This document shows, in pieces, positions 10,153 to 37,266 of a DNA stretch of 40,853 nt. Position numbers and translations under genes: made by a program. The notes under the pieces are model-generated. The model saw only the letters and a program-made list of their open reading frames with translations, was not told the origin of the DNA and searched no databases. The stretch covers positions 1-40,853 of the forward strand of contig USJU01000001.1 in the NCBI GenBank assembly GCA_900555085.1. Reading direction: 5' to 3'. Within the stretch, counting starts at the first letter, position 1; every line of letters starts with the position of its first letter. The DNA is from an uncultured Clostridium sp. (GTDB lineage Bacteria > Bacillota > Clostridia > TANB77 > CAG-508).

Positions 10153-10510
10153 TATATATACTCCAGGCTTTCCTGGTAATTTTTTTAGTTCATCTTCTAT
10201 AATAAATATTTTTAAGTCACCTCCAAAATATTTGTTTTATAAGAAATTTATATTATAAAACGTATTTTGATATTAACGAATTTATCATTTTTATATCTAC
10301 GTTAGATTTAAAATCAAATTGTAATATATCACCATTACTAAATGTCAATATTAATTCACTATCTATATCTAAAAATCCTGCTGTTTCAATTCCATAATAT
10401 TGTATTTTGGAATGTGGGTATATTTGGCATAATTAATTCCCCCTTTTTTTATTTTTTATATTATATCATATCATTTTATATTTACAAAATAAATTTATTT
10501 TGAGGAATGG

Positions 10511-10751: not shown

Positions 10752-11045
10752 ATGAATAATTTAAGAGAAGTTAATGATGATATTTTGAACGATTGGTTAG
10801 AATTTAGAGAGGAAACTTTTCTTTGCCAACTTTCTGATAAGGATTATAAGTATAGTTTGAATTTTGATAAGTTTTGTGAAAAGATTTTGCGTAATGTTTC
10901 TAAAGATAATAAACAGTTTGTTCAGTCGCAACTTGATAAATTGTATGATGATTTTATGATGTATCTTGATTATTGGAACGAGAAGTATTATAGGAATGGT
11001 TTTTGTGATGGGGTGCAGTTGATTGGTGGTAGTTTTGATAATTAA
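10752..11045 (+). CDS. hypothetical 97-aa acidic protein
   Basis: Strong SD (TAGGAGGA) upstream and a long hairpin terminator downstream. No motif recognised. Confidence 0.6.
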   Translation: MNNLREVNDDILNDWLEFREETFLCQLSDKDYKYSLNFDKFCEKILRNVSKDNKQFVQSQLDKLYDDFMMYLDYWNEKYYRNGFCDGVQLIGGSFDN

Positions 11046-11201: not shown

Positions 11202-11226
11202 AAAAAAGACGAGTTAACTCTCGTCT
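11202..11226 (-). terminator. intrinsic terminator of the HEPN/RT operon
   Basis: The minus strand reads GACGAG-AGTTAA-CTCGTC followed by TTTTTT, immediately after the RT stop codon. Confidence 0.65.
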
Positions 11227-11227
11227 C

Positions 11228-12775
11228 CTATTTTAATATTTTTAATATTATTTCAATAATACCATCTTCAAATTCTTCTAAAATTTCTTTTGAAATTTTT
11301 ACTGATGCTTTTCCATTTTTACTTGGATGTGAAACTGGATTAAAATTTCTTCTATCATAAAATTTTCTTATTAATATCTCCTCTTTATTTCCTATTATAT
11401 TATTTTTATATAATTTATTTATTATCCTTTCAACACTATCTTGATCATTTAGTTTAAATTTTTCTTTACAGATTTCATGAAATAAATTATGAAAATGATT
11501 AAATGCTGAATCTAAATTTCCATTTCTTATATTATAAACATACCATTTTAGCTGATTAATTATAGATTCGTTTATATTTTCTTGCTTTACTATTTCTACA
11601 ATCATTTTATTATACATAGTATTATTTTCACAAAGTATTTTTCTTGAGTATTTCGAATCCTTATTAAACTCATAATTTATTTGATTAAAAATACCTTCAT
11701 TTCCTAATATATTAATAGAAGTGTCATTTTTTATAATTTTCTTTAATATTAAAATATATTTTCCATAATTGTCTTTAAACAATTCTTCTCTATTCTGATT
11801 AATATATAAATCAAATTCACCATAATCATCAAAATCTATACCTTGACTGATCATTAATAAGATAATATGTAATAGCCTTTTATCTTTTAAATCCAGATTA
11901 TTTAGAATATATTCTACTAAAATATCTAAATAAGGATTTGTATTATTATCATTTATAAAAAATAATGCAATTAAAATATTCATTTGACTCACTGTTAATT
12001 CTATATCTAATTGACTTAGTATCTCTCTTATTCTCATTTTTATTTCCGGCTTTTTTAAATAGTTTTTTACACTTTCATCAAAAACTATTTTTAATTTTTC
12101 CTTATCTTTATCTGTAATTTTAAATTCAAAAGTATCTTCATCTGTAAATTTATATTTTTTAACAATTTCTAGCATTTCATCTATTTTCTTTTCTATTTCC
12201 TCATTCTTTGTATTATCTGTATTTGTATTATTTACATTTGAAACCTTCTTAGTATTATTCTCTATAAATTCTTTTCTAACATCTTTATTATGCATTATTG
12301 CATATTCTGTCTTTTTTTCATTTATTCTTAACATTAATTCATTATTCAAAAATAAAGACAATTCTTGTTCCAACTTAGATAATTCTTTAAATATTTCTTT
12401 GTTTGTTAGATTATTTTTATTTCTAAAAATAATCATTGTATCATCTACATATCTAATCATCGCTTTATATTCTAAATCGTATTTATCACAAATATCAATA
12501 ATATTAAAGTCTAATGGTAACAAGTATAATAATCCATACAAATCTGATACACAATTTACTTTTCCTTGAGGGATACCCTGTTTTCTATTCATAAGCGATT
12601 CAAAATAAAATAATAAGGTATCTCTTGCTTTTTCATCAATATCATAGATAGCTAATTTTGACTCCAACCCTAACTCTTTTAATAAATTTATTAATTTTTC
12701 ATGTTTCATGGTATCAAAATAATTACTTATGTCTATTTTTAAAATTATATCTCCTTCTTCTACTATTTCTTCCAT
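11228..12775 (-). CDS. AbiA-like reverse transcriptase, downstream portion: RT motifs A-E, a helical repeat region and a C-terminal HEPN-like motif
   Basis: Motifs: ILKIDISNYFD (motif A), GIPQG (motif B), RYVDDTMII (YxDD, motif C), INEKKT (motif D/E-like). The C-terminus has RRNFNPVSH (Rx4-6H). There is no SD before its ATG. It is in frame with 12824-13234 across a single TGA. Confidence 0.8.
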   Translation of the reverse strand: MEEIVEEGDIILKIDISNYFDTMKHEKLINLLKELGLESKLAIYDIDEKARDTLLFYFESLMNRKQGIPQGKVNCVSDLYGLLYLLPLDFNIIDICDKYDLEYKAMIRYVDDTMIIFRNKNNLTNKEIFKELSKLEQELSLFLNNELMLRINEKKTEYAIMHNKDVRKEFIENNTKKVSNVNNTNTDNTKNEEIEKKIDEMLEIVKKYKFTDEDTFEFKITDKDKEKLKIVFDESVKNYLKKPEIKMRIREILSQLDIELTVSQMNILIALFFINDNNTNPYLDILVEYILNNLDLKDKRLLHIILLMISQGIDFDDYGEFDLYINQNREELFKDNYGKYILILKKIIKNDTSINILGNEGIFNQINYEFNKDSKYSRKILCENNTMYNKMIVEIVKQENINESIINQLKWYVYNIRNGNLDSAFNHFHNLFHEICKEKFKLNDQDSVERIINKLYKNNIIGNKEEILIRKFYDRRNFNPVSHPSKNGKASVKISKEILEEFEDGIIEIILKILK

Positions 12776-12823
12776 TTTATCTGTAAACTTTGTATATTGT
12801 TTAGCATATTCGTTTTGAGATTT

Positions 12824-13234
12824 TCATCCATCATCATTATTAATAAATCTAGTTGGCGAAAAATGAAAAACATTTCTATTCTCAAATTTAACTTTATTTA
12901 AAAAATCATTACACACATCTACAAATAATAACCCCACTGCATTATACAAAATCATAGACATCATTGTAAAAAATTTGTACTCTCTTAATCCATTAACATT
13001 TTTAGGAATAGAAACTGTATCTGCTGAAAATAGATATGGAATAGCATAAAAGATTTCTGACTTTATATATTTTTGATAGTATGCTCTTATATTATTTTCT
13101 GTTATTGATTGAAATGCATTCTTTAATAGCATTAAATTTATATCTGTTATAAATTCTTTTTCCGAATATTTTTTACATATTTTATATGCATTTACAAATA
13201 GTTCTTCTGTTATTACATCTGATATTTTCTTCAT
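12824..13234 (-). CDS. AbiA-like reverse transcriptase, N-terminal portion (fingers, RT motif 1), ending at an in-frame TGA
   Basis: SIPKNVNGLREYKF matches RT motif 1 (IPK..G..R). SD AAGGAG lies upstream of the ATG at 13234. The TGA stop is at 12824-12826, and 16 sense codons link it in frame to the next ORF. Confidence 0.75.
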   Translation of the reverse strand: MKKISDVITEELFVNAYKICKKYSEKEFITDINLMLLKNAFQSITENNIRAYYQKYIKSEIFYAIPYLFSADTVSIPKNVNGLREYKFFTMMSMILYNAVGLLFVDVCNDFLNKVKFENRNVFHFSPTRFINNDDG

Positions 13235-13251
13235 AATTACTCCTTATATTT

Positions 13252-14559
13252 TTAGAATGGTAAATCATCCTCTATCAAAAGCATTTCATCATACTTAAAA
13301 TTATTATACTTTTTTAAGTCTATCTTTTTCCAGTTAATATTGGATTTTTTTATTATATCATTATTGTCATATTCTGATCTACCTCTATTATATATTTGAT
13401 TATTTTTATTAATTTTTTCTATTAAAGTTTCAATTTGCCTTTGTTGCATTCTACTTATATTAGGTCTAATCATTACATCAAAATTTAAATCTGCGTCATC
13501 AAAACATACACTATTTCCAAAGCAATCAATATATTTGTCAAGTAAAAGTATTTCTTTTCCTTCATCTTTTATCTTTTTTTCTAATAACTCTCTTGTATGC
13601 TTATTTATAAAATTGATTGTATTGAGTGTACTAATATGTTCTTCAATATTTTTTGATGTATAGTATGCAATTGTTTTATAATCATTGTTTTTATTAACTA
13701 CTACTTCAGTTGCTATCTTATTATCTTCTTTTAAATAATTGTATACTTCTGGGAAATAATACATAAATTCTACTAAATATATTGCAATTTCTTCATTATC
13801 ACTTATATTATTATATTTATCTTTTTCTTTTTGGATATCTTCTAATATTTTCAATTTATATTCTCGCATTGTCAAAATTAAAAATTCTAAATTAATTTTT
13901 CTATTGATATTGCAATCTTCATTATCTAATTTAAATGTTATCTTCCAGAAATCTCTAAAAATACTAATTATCATATTTTGTGGTATTCTCTCAAAATACT
14001 TTTTTTCTATATATCTTTTAAATTTCTCTTTATCCTCTAAAAAATCTTCCTTTTTACTTGATATATCATCTAATAAATTATTTGTTATTTTCTTTATAAA
14101 TAAAGGTGGCCTTATAAAAATGCCTATTAGCATTTCTTTTATAAGTCCTAGCGTTTTTTCTCTCGATGGTCTTATTAGTTCATTGTTTTGATTTAAAGAA
14201 GGATGCGCTGAAAAATTTCTTACATTTTTTAAATCTTCTATATTGGCTAAAACATATGGTTCTATAATATTAGTTTTATCTTTAATCCTATCAATCAATT
14301 TATTCTCCCATTCTGAACTTTTAGGATTACTTTCTCTAATTTGGTCTATCTCTTTTAATATTTCTTCTGCAACTGAATCTAAATAGTAATCTTTTAATTC
14401 TTCTAATTTAAATAATAAATCTGCAATTACAACAGAATACAACATTACAATTGCTGACCTATAATTTTCGCTATAAAATGAGCGTTCTACTTCTTCAAAA
14501 TATTCTTTAGTTCTTGGGAAATATATTTGTTCCTTCAACTCTGATATGTTTTGTTCCAA
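13252..14559 (-). CDS. HEPN-domain (DUF4145-like) protein with an uncharacterised C-terminal extension of about 280 aa; TTG start
   Basis: The N-terminus reads SENYRSAIVMLYSVVIADLLFKL ... LKNVRNFSAHPS (RNxxxH HEPN motif). SD AGGAGG lies 7 nt before TTG at 14559. Its stop is 17 nt before the RT start. Confidence 0.7.
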   Translation of the reverse strand: MEQNISELKEQIYFPRTKEYFEEVERSFYSENYRSAIVMLYSVVIADLLFKLEELKDYYLDSVAEEILKEIDQIRESNPKSSEWENKLIDRIKDKTNIIEPYVLANIEDLKNVRNFSAHPSLNQNNELIRPSREKTLGLIKEMLIGIFIRPPLFIKKITNNLLDDISSKKEDFLEDKEKFKRYIEKKYFERIPQNMIISIFRDFWKITFKLDNEDCNINRKINLEFLILTMREYKLKILEDIQKEKDKYNNISDNEEIAIYLVEFMYYFPEVYNYLKEDNKIATEVVVNKNNDYKTIAYYTSKNIEEHISTLNTINFINKHTRELLEKKIKDEGKEILLLDKYIDCFGNSVCFDDADLNFDVMIRPNISRMQQRQIETLIEKINKNNQIYNRGRSEYDNNDIIKKSNINWKKIDLKKYNNFKYDEMLLIEDDLPF

Positions 14560-14621: not shown

Positions 14622-15560
14622 TTACCTTTTCAAATAATATTTCATTATTTCAGCATATTGATCCTGTGCATTTAAACAGGTATCAATTAAATATCCTTTT
14701 TCTCCACCATTTTGATATTCTTTTAATCCTCTATAATAGAACAATTTATCCTTATCTAATATAATAAAAGGAATTATATTATTTTTTAAACACTCTTTAA
14801 AAATAATTATTCTACCCACTCTACCATTTCCATCTTGAAATGGATGTATCTTTTCGAATCTTGCATGAAATTCTATTATTTCTTTTATTGTTATTTTGGA
14901 TAAAGAGTTGTACCAATCCATTAATTTTGTCATATCCCTTTGAACATATTTAGGCGATGTAGTTTTTGTGCTTCCTGCTTCATTAACAACTTGTTTATAA
15001 TCACCAACTTTAAACCATTCTTTTCTACTATCTGCAGTTCCTTCTTTTAATAATCTATGAAATTCTTTTATCATATCTTCTGTCAAATTTTCTTCCGCTT
15101 TATCTAACATGTAATCCACTAGCTTAAAATGATTAGCCATTTCTAATATATCATCAACACTTGCAATTGTTTCTCCTTCAAATAAAATTGTATTTGTTTC
15201 AAATATATATCTCGTTTGATCTTCTGTTAATTTGCTACCTTCAATGTGGTTTGTATTATATGCAAATATAATTTGTGTATTATGATATAAATTACCTTTT
15301 AATTTCATTTCTTTTTGTTCTCTTAGTATATTTAATACATTAATTTTAGATATATCAAATCTATCTTGCTCATCATTCAATAATTCATCAACAGAAACTT
15401 CAAATATTTCAGCTAACTTTTTTAATGATTCGATATTAGGCTCTAATGTACCTGATTCATATTTTGATACGGTTGCAGATTTCACTCCCAATATATCTGC
15501 AATCTCATTTTGAGTCATATTTTTACTTTCTCTATATGATTTTATTTTTTCTCTTAACAT
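14622..15560 (-). CDS. XRE-family HTH fused to a Fic/DOC domain protein
   Basis: The N-terminal HTH reads MTQNEIADILGVKSATVSKYESG. The C-terminal Fic motif is HPFQDGNGRVGR (HxFx[DE]GNGRxxR). Confidence 0.9.
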   Translation of the reverse strand: MLREKIKSYRESKNMTQNEIADILGVKSATVSKYESGTLEPNIESLKKLAEIFEVSVDELLNDEQDRFDISKINVLNILREQKEMKLKGNLYHNTQIIFAYNTNHIEGSKLTEDQTRYIFETNTILFEGETIASVDDILEMANHFKLVDYMLDKAEENLTEDMIKEFHRLLKEGTADSRKEWFKVGDYKQVVNEAGSTKTTSPKYVQRDMTKLMDWYNSLSKITIKEIIEFHARFEKIHPFQDGNGRVGRIIIFKECLKNNIIPFIILDKDKLFYYRGLKEYQNGGEKGYLIDTCLNAQDQYAEIMKYYLKR

Positions 15561-15690: not shown

Positions 15691-16992
15691 TTAGTTCCAA
15701 TAATAATATGAACCATATTTATCTAATTTATTATTTTTATTATCCATAGATTCTGTATGTTTTCTTTTTCCAAGAAGTTCATCTTCTTCATCAATAATAG
15801 GATCAAACCAATTTGCTTTCTTATTAGCCCAATTAATCCATTCTTTTATTTCATCTGTTAAGTTTTCTTTTTTAGAAACAGCATCAATATAATTTCTTAT
15901 CTCACATGCTATTTTATAATCTTCTGCACAATTTATCAACTCTTTAATTTTTTCTACTTCTTTCTTTTTGGCATTTCTAATTTTTTCTTTTCTTTCTTCC
16001 TCTTCTCTTTGTTTTCTCGCAATTTCTTCTCTTTCTAATCTTTCATTTTTCGTTTCTTCAGATTGTTCATATAATTTTATAATTATATCTCCTAGTTTAT
16101 CTTCCAATCTTATTTTATCATTTTCTCTTATGTATTTTCTGTTGCCACAGGTTATTTTTAATTTACCATTCCAAACATAATCATACTTCTTTATATTAGG
16201 CTTATATCCAAATGTATTTCTCTTTTGGGATTCCTCATATTCTAATATTTTTTTTGCCTCTTCTTTAGTCAATTCATGCATTACTTTATCTTGTAATTCT
16301 TCTATTTCAATTGTAATATGTTCTTCACGAACTTGTAGTGAAAAATCGTTGTTTACTTTTCCTCCTAGTTCTTCTATTGCAAAGTAAATCGCACTTAATA
16401 TCTTCATACATCTATCTTTTTGTAGTTTTGATATATTAGAAAAATATCCCTTTTCTACGTAATCATGAATATTATAATAAGGATTAAAATAGTTCGCTTT
16501 TCTTTCTTCTCTTCGTTCTTCTTTTTTCTTATTTTTATATTCAATAATTACTTTATGATTTCTCTTGTATTTATCTACACTTAGATCATAAATAACTTCA
16601 GCTACCTTCTTTTTTTCATCTTCTTCTAGAAAGTTTAGAGAATTAAATTCTTGAATAAATTTATCTTTATCGCTAACTTTTTCATCAATCAATACTCCAG
16701 TATTTTTAAGTGGAATTTCAATTTCTTTTTCTTTTGCTTCTGGCAATTCAACAATTTCAGTTGAAAAATCCAAGCCCATATTCTTCTTAGTCCAATATGC
16801 TGAAGATGGATATGGAATATTATTTTCTTTGCAAGCTTGTACCAATTTCGTGTAATTCAGTCCATATTTTTTAGAAACACCTGTTAATGAAATATCCCAA
16901 ATTTCATCATAAAGTTTTTTTCTTTCAAATTTCATAGATAAACTATCCATAAACATCTTCCTTTCCTTCAAATTTCTTTTCTTTATTTTCAT
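15691..16992 (-). CDS. hypothetical protein with a strongly charged coiled-coil segment; the start may be at M13/M15 (about 16950-16956)
   Basis: 433-aa ORF. The N-terminus KKLYDEIWDISLTGVSKKYGLNYTKLVQACKENNIPYPSSAYW looks HTH-like. The ERLEREEIARKQREEEERKEKIRNAKKKEVEKIKE segment looks coiled-coil. Confidence 0.6.
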   Translation of the reverse strand: MKIKKRNLKERKMFMDSLSMKFERKKLYDEIWDISLTGVSKKYGLNYTKLVQACKENNIPYPSSAYWTKKNMGLDFSTEIVELPEAKEKEIEIPLKNTGVLIDEKVSDKDKFIQEFNSLNFLEEDEKKKVAEVIYDLSVDKYKRNHKVIIEYKNKKKEERREERKANYFNPYYNIHDYVEKGYFSNISKLQKDRCMKILSAIYFAIEELGGKVNNDFSLQVREEHITIEIEELQDKVMHELTKEEAKKILEYEESQKRNTFGYKPNIKKYDYVWNGKLKITCGNRKYIRENDKIRLEDKLGDIIIKLYEQSEETKNERLEREEIARKQREEEERKEKIRNAKKKEVEKIKELINCAEDYKIACEIRNYIDAVSKKENLTDEIKEWINWANKKANWFDPIIDEEDELLGKRKHTESMDNKNNKLDKYGSYYYWN

Positions 16993-22823: not shown

Positions 22824-23459
22824 CTACAATTTTATTTGATTTTCAATATTATTTATAATGTTTTTTTCTATAATTGCCTCATACAATTGTTTTATTTTAT
22901 CATATTCAGTATATAAATCTTCTCTAAATTTTCTTTCACCAAATTCTTTTTGTAATTTAATAAACTCTGTCGAATTTTTACTATTTTTTTCAAGAATCCT
23001 ATTTAATATAATTTGCTCCTTATACATTAATCTTAATAGTTCTTGATATTCGTATACAAACTCTTTGATTAAATTAATACAATCTCCGTTAAATAAAAAT
23101 TTCATCTCAATTGATAATTTCTTAATCTCTTCTAATTTTATTAAAAAATTTTGTCTAATATCCTCTTGTTCAACATTGTCTATTATTGTACCAATATCCT
23201 TTAGATATATATTATTGGTTAAGCTATGAAATAAAACAGTTACATCTATAAAATGATCATAATCTTCTTTATCCATCAAATGTTTGCTTTCCTTAAAAAG
23301 CGAGATTAAACCATTTATAGTAATAAATCTATCCACTCTTTTATCAAATAATTGATGCTTATTACTAATTGTTATTTGTCTATGAGTTTGCCACAGTGCA
23401 ATAACAGCTATAATTGCAGTTATTATTGCAAAAATATTGTTTCCAATAAATTGTCCCAT
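22824..23459 (-). CDS. hypothetical N-terminally membrane-anchored protein embedded between hsdS and hsdR
   Basis: SD AAGGAG upstream. Single TM helix NIFAIITAIIAVIALW, followed by a helical region of about 180 aa. Its stop is 10 nt before the hsdR start. Confidence 0.6.
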   Translation of the reverse strand: MGQFIGNNIFAIITAIIAVIALWQTHRQITISNKHQLFDKRVDRFITINGLISLFKESKHLMDKEDYDHFIDVTVLFHSLTNNIYLKDIGTIIDNVEQEDIRQNFLIKLEEIKKLSIEMKFLFNGDCINLIKEFVYEYQELLRLMYKEQIILNRILEKNSKNSTEFIKLQKEFGERKFREDLYTEYDKIKQLYEAIIEKNIINNIENQIKL

Positions 23460-35191: not shown

Positions 35192-35256
35192 AATAATGTA
35201 AAAAGCTATTATACAAATAAAATATTTTAAAAGGAGGTTTAGTTTATTTAATTTAT

Positions 35257-35380
35257 TAAGCGCCAGGACAATTTTTTATTGTTGACGAGGTTAGAACTTA
35301 TCGAATTTTTCGGCGGATGGTTCTATGGTTTGGCTAAGATCATTAAGTATTAACAAAAACTAGTAGCAATACTAAAACAA
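35257..35380 (+). ncRNA. glmS ribozyme (GlcN6P-dependent self-cleaving riboswitch)
   Basis: AGCGCCAGGAC...GUUGACGAGG...UUAUCGAAUUUUUCGGCGGAUG...AUCAUUAAG matches the conserved glmS ribozyme core. It lies directly upstream of glmS. Confidence 0.88.
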
Positions 35381-35442
35381 ATTTAATACTATTTAGCTTT
35401 TATTTGTGTGCTTTTTTAATAAAAATTTAAGGAGGTACGCTT

Positions 35443-37266
35443 ATGTGCGGTATTGTTGGTTACAATGGTAACAAAAAAGCTTGTCCAATTTTAATTAATG
35501 GACTAAAAAAATTAGAATACAGAGGTTATGATTCTGCTGGTATTTCTGTTATGGAAAGCAATAATATTATTATAAAAAAAGATAAAGGCAGAGTTGCAAA
35601 CCTTGAAAATATAGAAGGAATTGAATCTTTAAATGGAACCCTTGGAATTGCTCATACAAGATGGGCAACACATGGAAAACCTTCTAAAGAAAATGCTCAT
35701 CCTCATATGGATAATAGTAAAACTTTTTCTGTTGTTCACAATGGAATTATTGAGAATTATAAGGAATTAAGAGATTTTTTAGAGAGTAAAAATTATACTT
35801 TTTATTCTGATACAGATACGGAAACTATTCCAAATTTAATTCATTATTATTACGAAAAAGAAAACAATTTTCTAAAAGCTGTTAATTTAGCTTGTAAAGA
35901 TTTAAAAGGAAGCTATGCTTTAGAAGTTATAAACAAGAATAATCCAGATACATTAATAGTAACAAGAAAAGATAGCCCTTTAGTAATAGGTACAAAAAAA
36001 GATGAAACTTTTATATCATCTGACATCCCTGCATTAATATCTTTTACAAATAATTTCTATTTTTTAAATGATAAAGAATATGCAGTTATTACAAAAGGTA
36101 ATATAGAATTTTATGATTTTGATTTAAACAAATTAACAAAAAAATCTGAAAGTGTAGAGCTTGCAGCAGATAGTGCTGATAAAGGTAAATTTGAAGATTA
36201 TATGTTAAAAGAAATTTTTGAACAACCAAAAGCTATTAGAGAAACTATAGGAACATCTTTAAACGGTAACTCTATCACATTTGATGGTTTGAGCTTGGAT
36301 AAAAATTTTTTAAGAACTATAAATCAAATTTATATAGTAGCTTGTGGAACTGCAATGCATGCTGGTCTTGCTGTTAAAGCAAACTTTGAACATTTTTTAA
36401 ATGTACCAGTTTGTGTAGATGTTGCTTCAGAGTTTAGATATAGAGATCCTTTAATTAATGAAAAAACTCTTTGTATTTATATAAGTCAATCTGGAGAAAC
36501 AGCTGATACTATTGCAGCTCTTAAACTTGCAAAATCTAAAAATGCAAAAACAATTGCAGTAACAAATGTAATTGAAAGTTCTATAACAAGAGAAGCAGAT
36601 TATTTTATATATACACACGCAGGTCCAGAAATTGCTGTTGCATCTACAAAAGCATATACATCTCAAGTTGTTTTATTAAATATTATGGCATTATATTTTG
36701 CAGAAATATTAGAAAGCATATCAAGTGAAAAAATAAAAGAATTAAAAAATGAATTATTATCTTTACCAGAAAAAGCAGAAAAAGTCTTGAAAAGTTCAAA
36801 AGATTTACAAGAATTTGCACAAAAAATATATAAAGAAAAAGATGTATTTTTCATTGGAAGAGGAATAGATTATCCTGTTTCTATGGAAGCTTCTTTAAAA
36901 TTAAAAGAAATTTCATACATTCATTCTGAAAGCTTTGCAGCTGGAGAGTTGAAGCATGGTCCTATTGCATTAATAGAAAACGGAACTACAGTTGTAAGTA
37001 TTTTAACAGACCCTAATTTAGTAGAAAAAACAGTAAGTAATATTCAAGAAGTTATAACAAGAGGAGCAAAGAGCTTTGTTGTAACAAATCAACCTTTAGA
37101 TAAAACAAATTTTGACTTTGTAATATCTATACCACAAATAGATTCTATATATTCTCCTGTTTTATCTATAATTCCACTTCAATTACTTGCATATTATATT
37201 ACAAAAGAAAAGGGCTTAGACGTAGATAAACCACGAAACCTTGCAAAGTCAGTTACAGTTGAATAA
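35443..37266 (+). CDS. glmS: glutamine--fructose-6-phosphate aminotransferase (isomerising)
   Basis: 607 aa. It has the MCGIVGY N-terminal nucleophile, two SIS domains, and the C-terminal motif NLAKSVTVE. Confidence 0.98.
   Translation: MCGIVGYNGNKKACPILINGLKKLEYRGYDSAGISVMESNNIIIKKDKGRVANLENIEGIESLNGTLGIAHTRWATHGKPSKENAHPHMDNSKTFSVVHNGIIENYKELRDFLESKNYTFYSDTDTETIPNLIHYYYEKENNFLKAVNLACKDLKGSYALEVINKNNPDTLIVTRKDSPLVIGTKKDETFISSDIPALISFTNNFYFLNDKEYAVITKGNIEFYDFDLNKLTKKSESVELAADSADKGKFEDYMLKEIFEQPKAIRETIGTSLNGNSITFDGLSLDKNFLRTINQIYIVACGTAMHAGLAVKANFEHFLNVPVCVDVASEFRYRDPLINEKTLCIYISQSGETADTIAALKLAKSKNAKTIAVTNVIESSITREADYFIYTHAGPEIAVASTKAYTSQVVLLNIMALYFAEILESISSEKIKELKNELLSLPEKAEKVLKSSKDLQEFAQKIYKEKDVFFIGRGIDYPVSMEASLKLKEISYIHSESFAAGELKHGPIALIENGTTVVSILTDPNLVEKTVSNIQEVITRGAKSFVVTNQPLDKTNFDFVISIPQIDSIYSPVLSIIPLQLLAYYITKEKGLDVDKPRNLAKSVTVE

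Follow-up and report, generated by a model that had tools for sequence, protein, structure and literature searches.

A probable recent nonsense mutation in an AbiA-type reverse transcriptase gene of a Clostridia defence island

An AbiA-like gene split into two open reading frames

We analysed a 40,853-nucleotide stretch of DNA from an uncultured Clostridium sp., referred to here as the window. A reverse transcriptase (RT) gene occupies positions 11228-13234 of its minus strand and comprises 668 codons in one frame, interrupted by a TGA at codon 137 (12824-12826). This interruption leaves two open reading frames (ORFs) that share the same frame on the minus strand, one of 136 amino acids (12824-13234) and one of 515 amino acids (11228-12775), and the gap between them consists of the TGA and 16 sense codons (KSQNEYAKQYTKFTDK). 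The start codon of the upstream ORF (ATG, 13232-13234) lies 5 nt behind a Shine-Dalgarno sequence, AAGGAG (13240-13245). Inspection of the sequence 5′ of the ATG at 12775, with which the downstream ORF begins, revealed no GGAG-like or other Shine-Dalgarno-like element, and promoter-like matches for this ORF are at chance level (55 found, 48.9 expected).

According to sequence and translation, codons 1-136 (12827-13234) encode the N-terminal part of the fingers, including motif 1 (SIPKNVNGLRE, residues 75-85, 12980-13012), whose residues P77, K78 and R84 are invariant in the first of our alignments (A1). The 16 sense codons between the stop and the next ATG (residues 138-153, 12776-12823) include those of the invariant Y143 and the near-invariant Y147, which are missing from any restart product. 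The palm, the helical domain and the HEPN domain are all encoded by codons 154-668 (11231-12775). Within this part lie the palm motifs KIDISNYFD (residues 166-174, with D168), GIPQG (220-224) and RYVDD (261-265, 12440-12454), the last of which is invariant in both A1 and a second alignment (A2), and the HEPN motif RNFNPVSH (residues 629-636, 11327-11350), in which R629, N630, S635 and H636 are invariant among 23-29 homologues. The true stop codon is a TAG (11228-11230). It is followed at 11202-11226 by a terminator-like hairpin (GAGACGAG..CTCGTCT) and then six T nucleotides on the minus strand; this element was identified from the sequence together with a stem scan, which listed the stem on the plus strand. 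The read-through product of the gene has 668 residues, and its amino-acid sequence across the codon-137 site is ...NNDDGWKSQNEYAK....

The original prediction had described a single RT of about 668 codons with motif 1 upstream of the stop and motifs A, B and C and the R-X6-H motif downstream of it, with all catalytic residues intact, and with a Shine-Dalgarno sequence for the first ORF and none for the second. This description of the gene is borne out in every one of these respects, and the HEPN residues downstream of the stop are intact as well.

A divergent AbiA-type polymerase

Searched against PADLOC, the read-through product hits the AbiA profile (PDLC03741) with an E-value of 8.5e-33, residues 40-660 being aligned to profile positions 32-585 of 595. 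It also matches the NCBIfam ‘AbiA family’ model TIGR04499 (E=5.9e-31), with a score of 107.8 bits that does not reach the curated cut-off of 250 bits. Because the score falls under this cut-off, we label the protein AbiA-like or AbiA-type, as a divergent relative. Its sole Pfam match is RVT_1 (7.7e-09, above the gathering score), and the RT part has weaker PADLOC matches to UG20, UG32 and UG22. An AlphaFold2 model of the read-through product, for which 30 homologues were used, has a pLDDT of 88.3 and a pTM of 0.88, and is predicted to be all-helical from about residue 341 to residue 667. The top matches of this model in a Foldseek search of the PDB are four chains of Lactococcus lactis AbiA (8oz7), with TM-scores of 0.58/0.65 over about 700 aligned columns; sequence identity in this structural alignment is 13-16%. 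Matches to the AbiK and Abi-P2 folds have TM-scores of 0.30-0.39 when normalised to the query, and of up to 0.51 when normalised to the shorter Abi-P2 target. A sequence-profile search of the PDB with the RT did not retrieve AbiA; its matches were limited to retron and group II RTs and covered the palm. A tblastn search of plasmid and phage collections yielded no match to the RT.

In the published structure, AbiA has three domains: one that is RT-like and carries RYVDD, a helical one, and a HEPN domain whose motif is RNSNPVSH (PMC11077055). Since the PADLOC match spans the full length, the best fold match is 8oz7, and RNFNPVSH closely resembles RNSNPVSH, the RT gene of the window is likewise assigned an AbiA architecture, as had been predicted. 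Sequence and predicted structure thus support the view that it encodes a divergent AbiA-type polymerase with RT-like, helical and C-terminal HEPN domains.

We also noted several features near residues of known function in AbiA. [quoted passage not shown] In our model, a loop predicted with low confidence (residues 330-342, pLDDT<50) lies at the position equivalent to this priming loop. The putative priming loop (residues 329-346, window 12197-12250) contains no tyrosine in the divergent AbiA-type family; the nearest one is Y311, and K329 and S332 are invariant in this region. These observations hint that the priming residue of the family may differ from that of L. lactis AbiA. The spacing of Y143 and Y147 (four residues) equals that of the DNA-stacking Tyr130 and Tyr134 of AbiA, and we would guess by analogy that the two pairs correspond.

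The surrounding defence island

The RT gene is part of a defence island that extends from an edge at about position 10509 of the window to position 23234 and beyond, and is 97.9-99.8% identical among strains. It contains a type I restriction-modification (R-M) system, genes of unknown function, an HTH-Fic gene, a PD-T7-3 homologue, the RT gene and an ORF of 97 amino acids. The PD-T7-3 homologue (13252-14559, minus strand; PADLOC E=3.7e-127) ends 17 nt 5′ of the RT start. It is probably co-transcribed with the RT gene, and is a separate system rather than a part of the RT; it carries an HEPN-like motif of its own, RNFSAH (R-X4-H), and has a weak HepT-like Pfam match. Upstream of it, the HTH_3 and Fic protein (14622-15560, minus strand) corresponds to the PADLOC candidate system PDC-S04 (E=8.9e-106), and its gene sits between that of PD-T7-3 and a gene for 433 amino acids without a family match. 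The type I restriction gene hsdR is located further 5′ of the RT. On the other side, the 97-amino-acid ORF (10752-11045, plus strand) is convergent with the RT gene and has no family match. It travels with the RT gene, adjoining it in all copies of the island and, with 61% identity, in locus L014, and a 43%-identical copy is found 1.8 kb downstream of the RT in L013; this ORF may be an accessory or regulatory gene.

The homology of the RT cassette with other genomes starts exactly at the ribosome-binding site of the RT, which coincides with the stop codon of the upstream gene (window 13251-13253; L001 5981, L013 5984, L014 5972). The gene found upstream of this point is PD-T7-3 in the window and a 235-amino-acid ORF in L013, while in L001, L002 and L014 an AAA_15/AAA_21 ATPase of 644-646 amino acids abuts or overlaps the RT start. 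The RT cassette is modular, and recombines exactly at the ribosome-binding site behind different upstream defence genes. An obligatory partner gene of the RT was considered and rejected, given that PD-T7-3, the AAA_15/21 ATPase, the 235-amino-acid ORF or none of these is found upstream.

The right-hand neighbour of the island also varies, being uvrC in the window and a deformylase, a type III R-M system, an acetyltransferase or CBAH elsewhere, so that either the junction of the island is hypervariable or the island itself is mobile. A GC content of about 26%, a GroEL whose sole named relative is ‘[Clostridia bacterium]’ at 84% identity, and the presence of Spo0A near the island in sister strains all point to a low-GC Clostridia host. 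Elsewhere in the window, a glmS ribozyme (Rfam RF00234, 83.4 bits; 35248-35400, plus strand) lies 5′ of a 607-amino-acid ORF (35443-37266), and a tRNA scan of the window found no tRNA genes.

Codon 137 in homologues and in close alleles

A homologue search returned 86 clusters, mostly of 660-690 amino acids and uninterrupted, and the approximately 86 clusters of this divergent AbiA subfamily all derive from uncultured bacteria or metagenome-assembled genomes. The column that corresponds to the TGA is occupied by Trp in 20 of the 23 aligned homologues, the remaining ones having Ile, Val or a gap. The 90%-identity cluster to which the RT belongs includes many intact members of 668 amino acids; one such intact allele, P0104, for which the collection lists 172 blocks, is encoded in the same island, in the order HsdR ... 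Fic, PD-T7-3, RT and then the convergent 97-amino-acid ORF. Codon 137 is TGG in all ten P0104 loci, as well as in L013 and L014. The ratio dN/dS is about 0.1 in intact alleles on both sides of codon 137, and these alleles are under purifying selection both 5′ and 3′ of this codon.

The nearest intact alleles (L023, L026, L027 and L028) differ from the RT gene of the window in only 3 of 2007 nt: TGG to TGA (W137*), the synonymous change GAG to GAA, and AAG to AGG (K603R, in a variable column). Over the 12.7 kb around the gene, the window and these alleles share 99.8% identity, and the RT stop is the sole disruptive difference in that comparison. Since codon 137 is TGG in every intact close allele, the TGA corresponds to a single G to A transition, at window position 12824. 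A stop at this codon is absent from every other lineage compared.

A search of NCBI, ENA, JGI and Logan data located the exact 136-amino-acid ORF on 11 contigs, which come from at least 8 sample accessions. The RT gene is 100% identical on these contigs, which are 99.93-100% identical to each other over up to 20 kb, and this near-total identity indicates that they represent one clone. The TGA is thus restricted to a single clone and reflects a single recent transition. The TGA alleles have zero diversity in the RT gene and no additional lesion in it across samples. This persistence without a further lesion carries no weight, however, because the clone shows essentially no divergence anywhere. 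In one contig (L005, from 11628), the sequence departs from the TGA-bearing RT after nt 1628 (codon ~543) into a Ham1-like gene, which could reflect a chimeric assembly or else another deletion or rearrangement in the dead RT gene.

Independent lesions in a sister clade

In a sister clade that is 84% identical and adjoins a BREX brxL gene, the RT is broken too, by other lesions. Loci L034 and L035 (L034 2359-4377) have TCA changed to TAA at codon 213 (S213) of the RT, and L031-L033 (L031 3001-5018) have a frameshift caused by a deletion in a run of A nucleotides (A8 to A7) at nt 1498. Each of these lesions is seen in 2-3 samples. As neither a TAA nor a frameshift is leaky, the recurrent outcome in this family is plain inactivation, and not a device specific to UGA.

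The RT is not the only gene affected. The island gene without a family match, of 419/433 amino acids, is split into ORFs of 235 and 138 amino acids in L028 (6286-7544, equivalent to window 15691-16992), and we take this as further evidence that genes decay within the island.

Sequence context of the stop codon

If the stop codon were a site of programmed read-through, a stimulatory RNA structure might accompany it. Folding 151 nt around and after the stop gave a minimum free energy of -9.75 kcal/mol, compared to a mean of -12.07 kcal/mol for shuffled sequences (z=+0.98), and we detected no such structure. An Rfam scan of the window found only the glmS ribozyme and no SECIS-like match, near the stop or elsewhere. 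The base after the TGA is A, and the UGAA context is comparatively leaky according to older E. coli literature.

To see how TGA is used in this genome, we counted codons in 32 ORFs of the window, which contain 66 TGG codons and terminate in 22 TAA, 8 TAG and 2 TGA codons. Of the two TGA stops, one is the RT lesion and the other is followed by several more stops. No in-frame TGA occurs in the other 31 ORFs counted, among them those of GroEL, CTP synthase, UvrC, MutL and HsdR. In this window, TGA acts as a normal stop codon.

Interpretation of the TGA allele

We consider it very probable that the two ORFs result from a recent nonsense mutation in a dispensable AbiA-type defence gene, and that the allele has lost its function or is, at best, a severe hypomorph. 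The conserved Trp-137 codon was turned from TGG into TGA by a G to A transition that took place in one clonal lineage. Starting from the good Shine-Dalgarno sequence, most ribosomes would then terminate at UGA-137 and release a fragment of 136 residues, which would end in the RT-like domain, 5′ of the catalytic motifs of the palm and, in the AlphaFold2 model, within a predicted beta-hairpin (strands 128-133 and 136-141). Only basal near-cognate decoding of the UGA by Trp-tRNA(Trp) could still yield a little wild-type full-length protein, so a trace of this protein is possible. We infer that the allele has otherwise lost its function.

The original prediction had named first a stop-codon gate, programmed or leaky, that sets a low RT dose, and had offered a very recent nonsense mutation and a sequencing error as alternatives. 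Read-through of UGA in bacteria is a competition of Trp-tRNA(Trp) with RF2 (PMC10570021), so that any leak at codon 137 would regenerate the native protein, and the catalytic and HEPN residues 3′ of the stop are all intact in an allele found in at least 8 samples. A TGA kept by selection could therefore supply a small dose of wild-type AbiA, which would make the polymerase less costly or less toxic and preserve some immunity. However, although no nonsense change other than TGG to TGA restores the native residue when it leaks, every such mutation has this property, and it is not evidence of design. The stop is present in a single clone while all relatives have TGG, no stimulatory structure follows it, and the sister alleles were inactivated by a non-leaky TAA and a frameshift, which points to plain loss; we found nothing that indicates selection for read-through. 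A gate of this kind is thus unlikely. Slightly less likely still is its more specific form, in which the change was naturally selected as a low-dose allele making a few per cent of wild-type AbiA, perhaps heterogeneously among cells; if true, such an allele would make a self-priming DNA polymerase less costly and retain some population-level immunity. Of the alternatives originally offered, it is the very recent nonsense mutation that agrees with the nearest intact alleles, only 3/2007 nt away, and with the confinement of the TGA to one clone.

The remaining explanations are all more improbable than a gate. The 136-residue fragment might form an active enzyme with a 515-residue product that is re-initiated at the ATG at 12775, just 48 nt past the stop; ribosomes that terminate can sometimes re-initiate over such a distance. 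Yet no Shine-Dalgarno sequence precedes this ATG, and such a pair would lose residues 137-153, which in the model make up strand 136-141 and the greater part of helix 143-157, with Y143 and Y147. Moreover, no homologue is naturally split in the region of codon 137, and close intact alleles, P0001 and P0108 among them, have Ile in place of M154; a functional split is accordingly very improbable. We give barely any credence to a sequencing or assembly error in place of a true TGG. Although only a single base separates the window from the common allele, independent assemblies of at least 8 sample accessions, spread over NCBI, ENA, JGI and Logan, contain the identical TGA allele, which is therefore not an assembly error. 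Closely related genomes do have TGG at this position, a check that had been proposed for detecting an error; the cause of the difference is a real mutation, and the result counts against the gate instead. Just as remote is a recoded TGA, read as Trp under genetic code 4 or as selenocysteine. In its favour, the genome is highly AT-rich, with about 26% GC, TGA is rare as a stop (2/32 ORFs) and the homologous residue is Trp. Against this, the other 31 ORFs use TGG and contain zero in-frame TGA codons, several more stops come after the only other ORF that ends in TGA, neither a SECIS-like element nor a hairpin follows the TGA, and homologues have Trp, not Cys, where selenocysteine would be placed.

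The nonsense mutation therefore remains our preferred explanation, and of the original interpretation the AbiA architecture and the recent mutation stand, the gate is not supported and the error is rejected. The gene is intact in most strains, and its two ORFs in the window should be annotated together as a single AbiA-like pseudogene or nonsense allele. Beyond annotation the finding matters little, other than as a clear case of defence genes that turn over rapidly: in different strains the same RT family was independently knocked out by a TGA, a TAA and a homopolymer frameshift. Studies of Abi polymerases may find some use in the divergent AbiA subfamily, with its putative priming loop devoid of tyrosine and its modular cassette.

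Comparison with known systems

Programmed read-through of a stop codon that sets the dose of a polymerase is known from the UAG of retroviral gag-pol. The gene in the window resembles this type in having an in-frame stop 5′ of the catalytic part of a reverse transcriptase. However, stops of the gag-pol type are conserved across relatives and followed by a stimulatory RNA element, and the RT stop described here has neither property.

Class 1 UG/Abi RTs, such as AbiK, Abi-P2, UG20, UG32 and UG22, share with the RT an RT-like polymerase followed by a helical repeat domain, and AbiK and Abi-P2 are similar in fold to the RT model at TM-scores of 0.3-0.5. They differ from it in that they are without a C-terminal HEPN domain, and their matches are much weaker than those of AbiA.

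The closest known system is L. lactis AbiA (8oz7; Gapinska et al. 2024, PMC11077055). RYVDD is present in both proteins and their R-X6-H motifs are nearly identical (RNFNPVSH here, RNSNPVSH there). L. lactis AbiA is also the best structural match over the whole length, AbiA profiles match at full length, and the setting is that of a defence island. On the other hand, the protein described here is about 70 residues longer, and its gene is chromosomal, in an uncultured Clostridia bacterium, with a premature stop in the allele of the window. What characterises the AbiA class is untemplated DNA synthesis from a protein primer, dimerisation through the HEPN domain and defence against phage, and it is by sequence and predicted structure that the RT is placed in this class.
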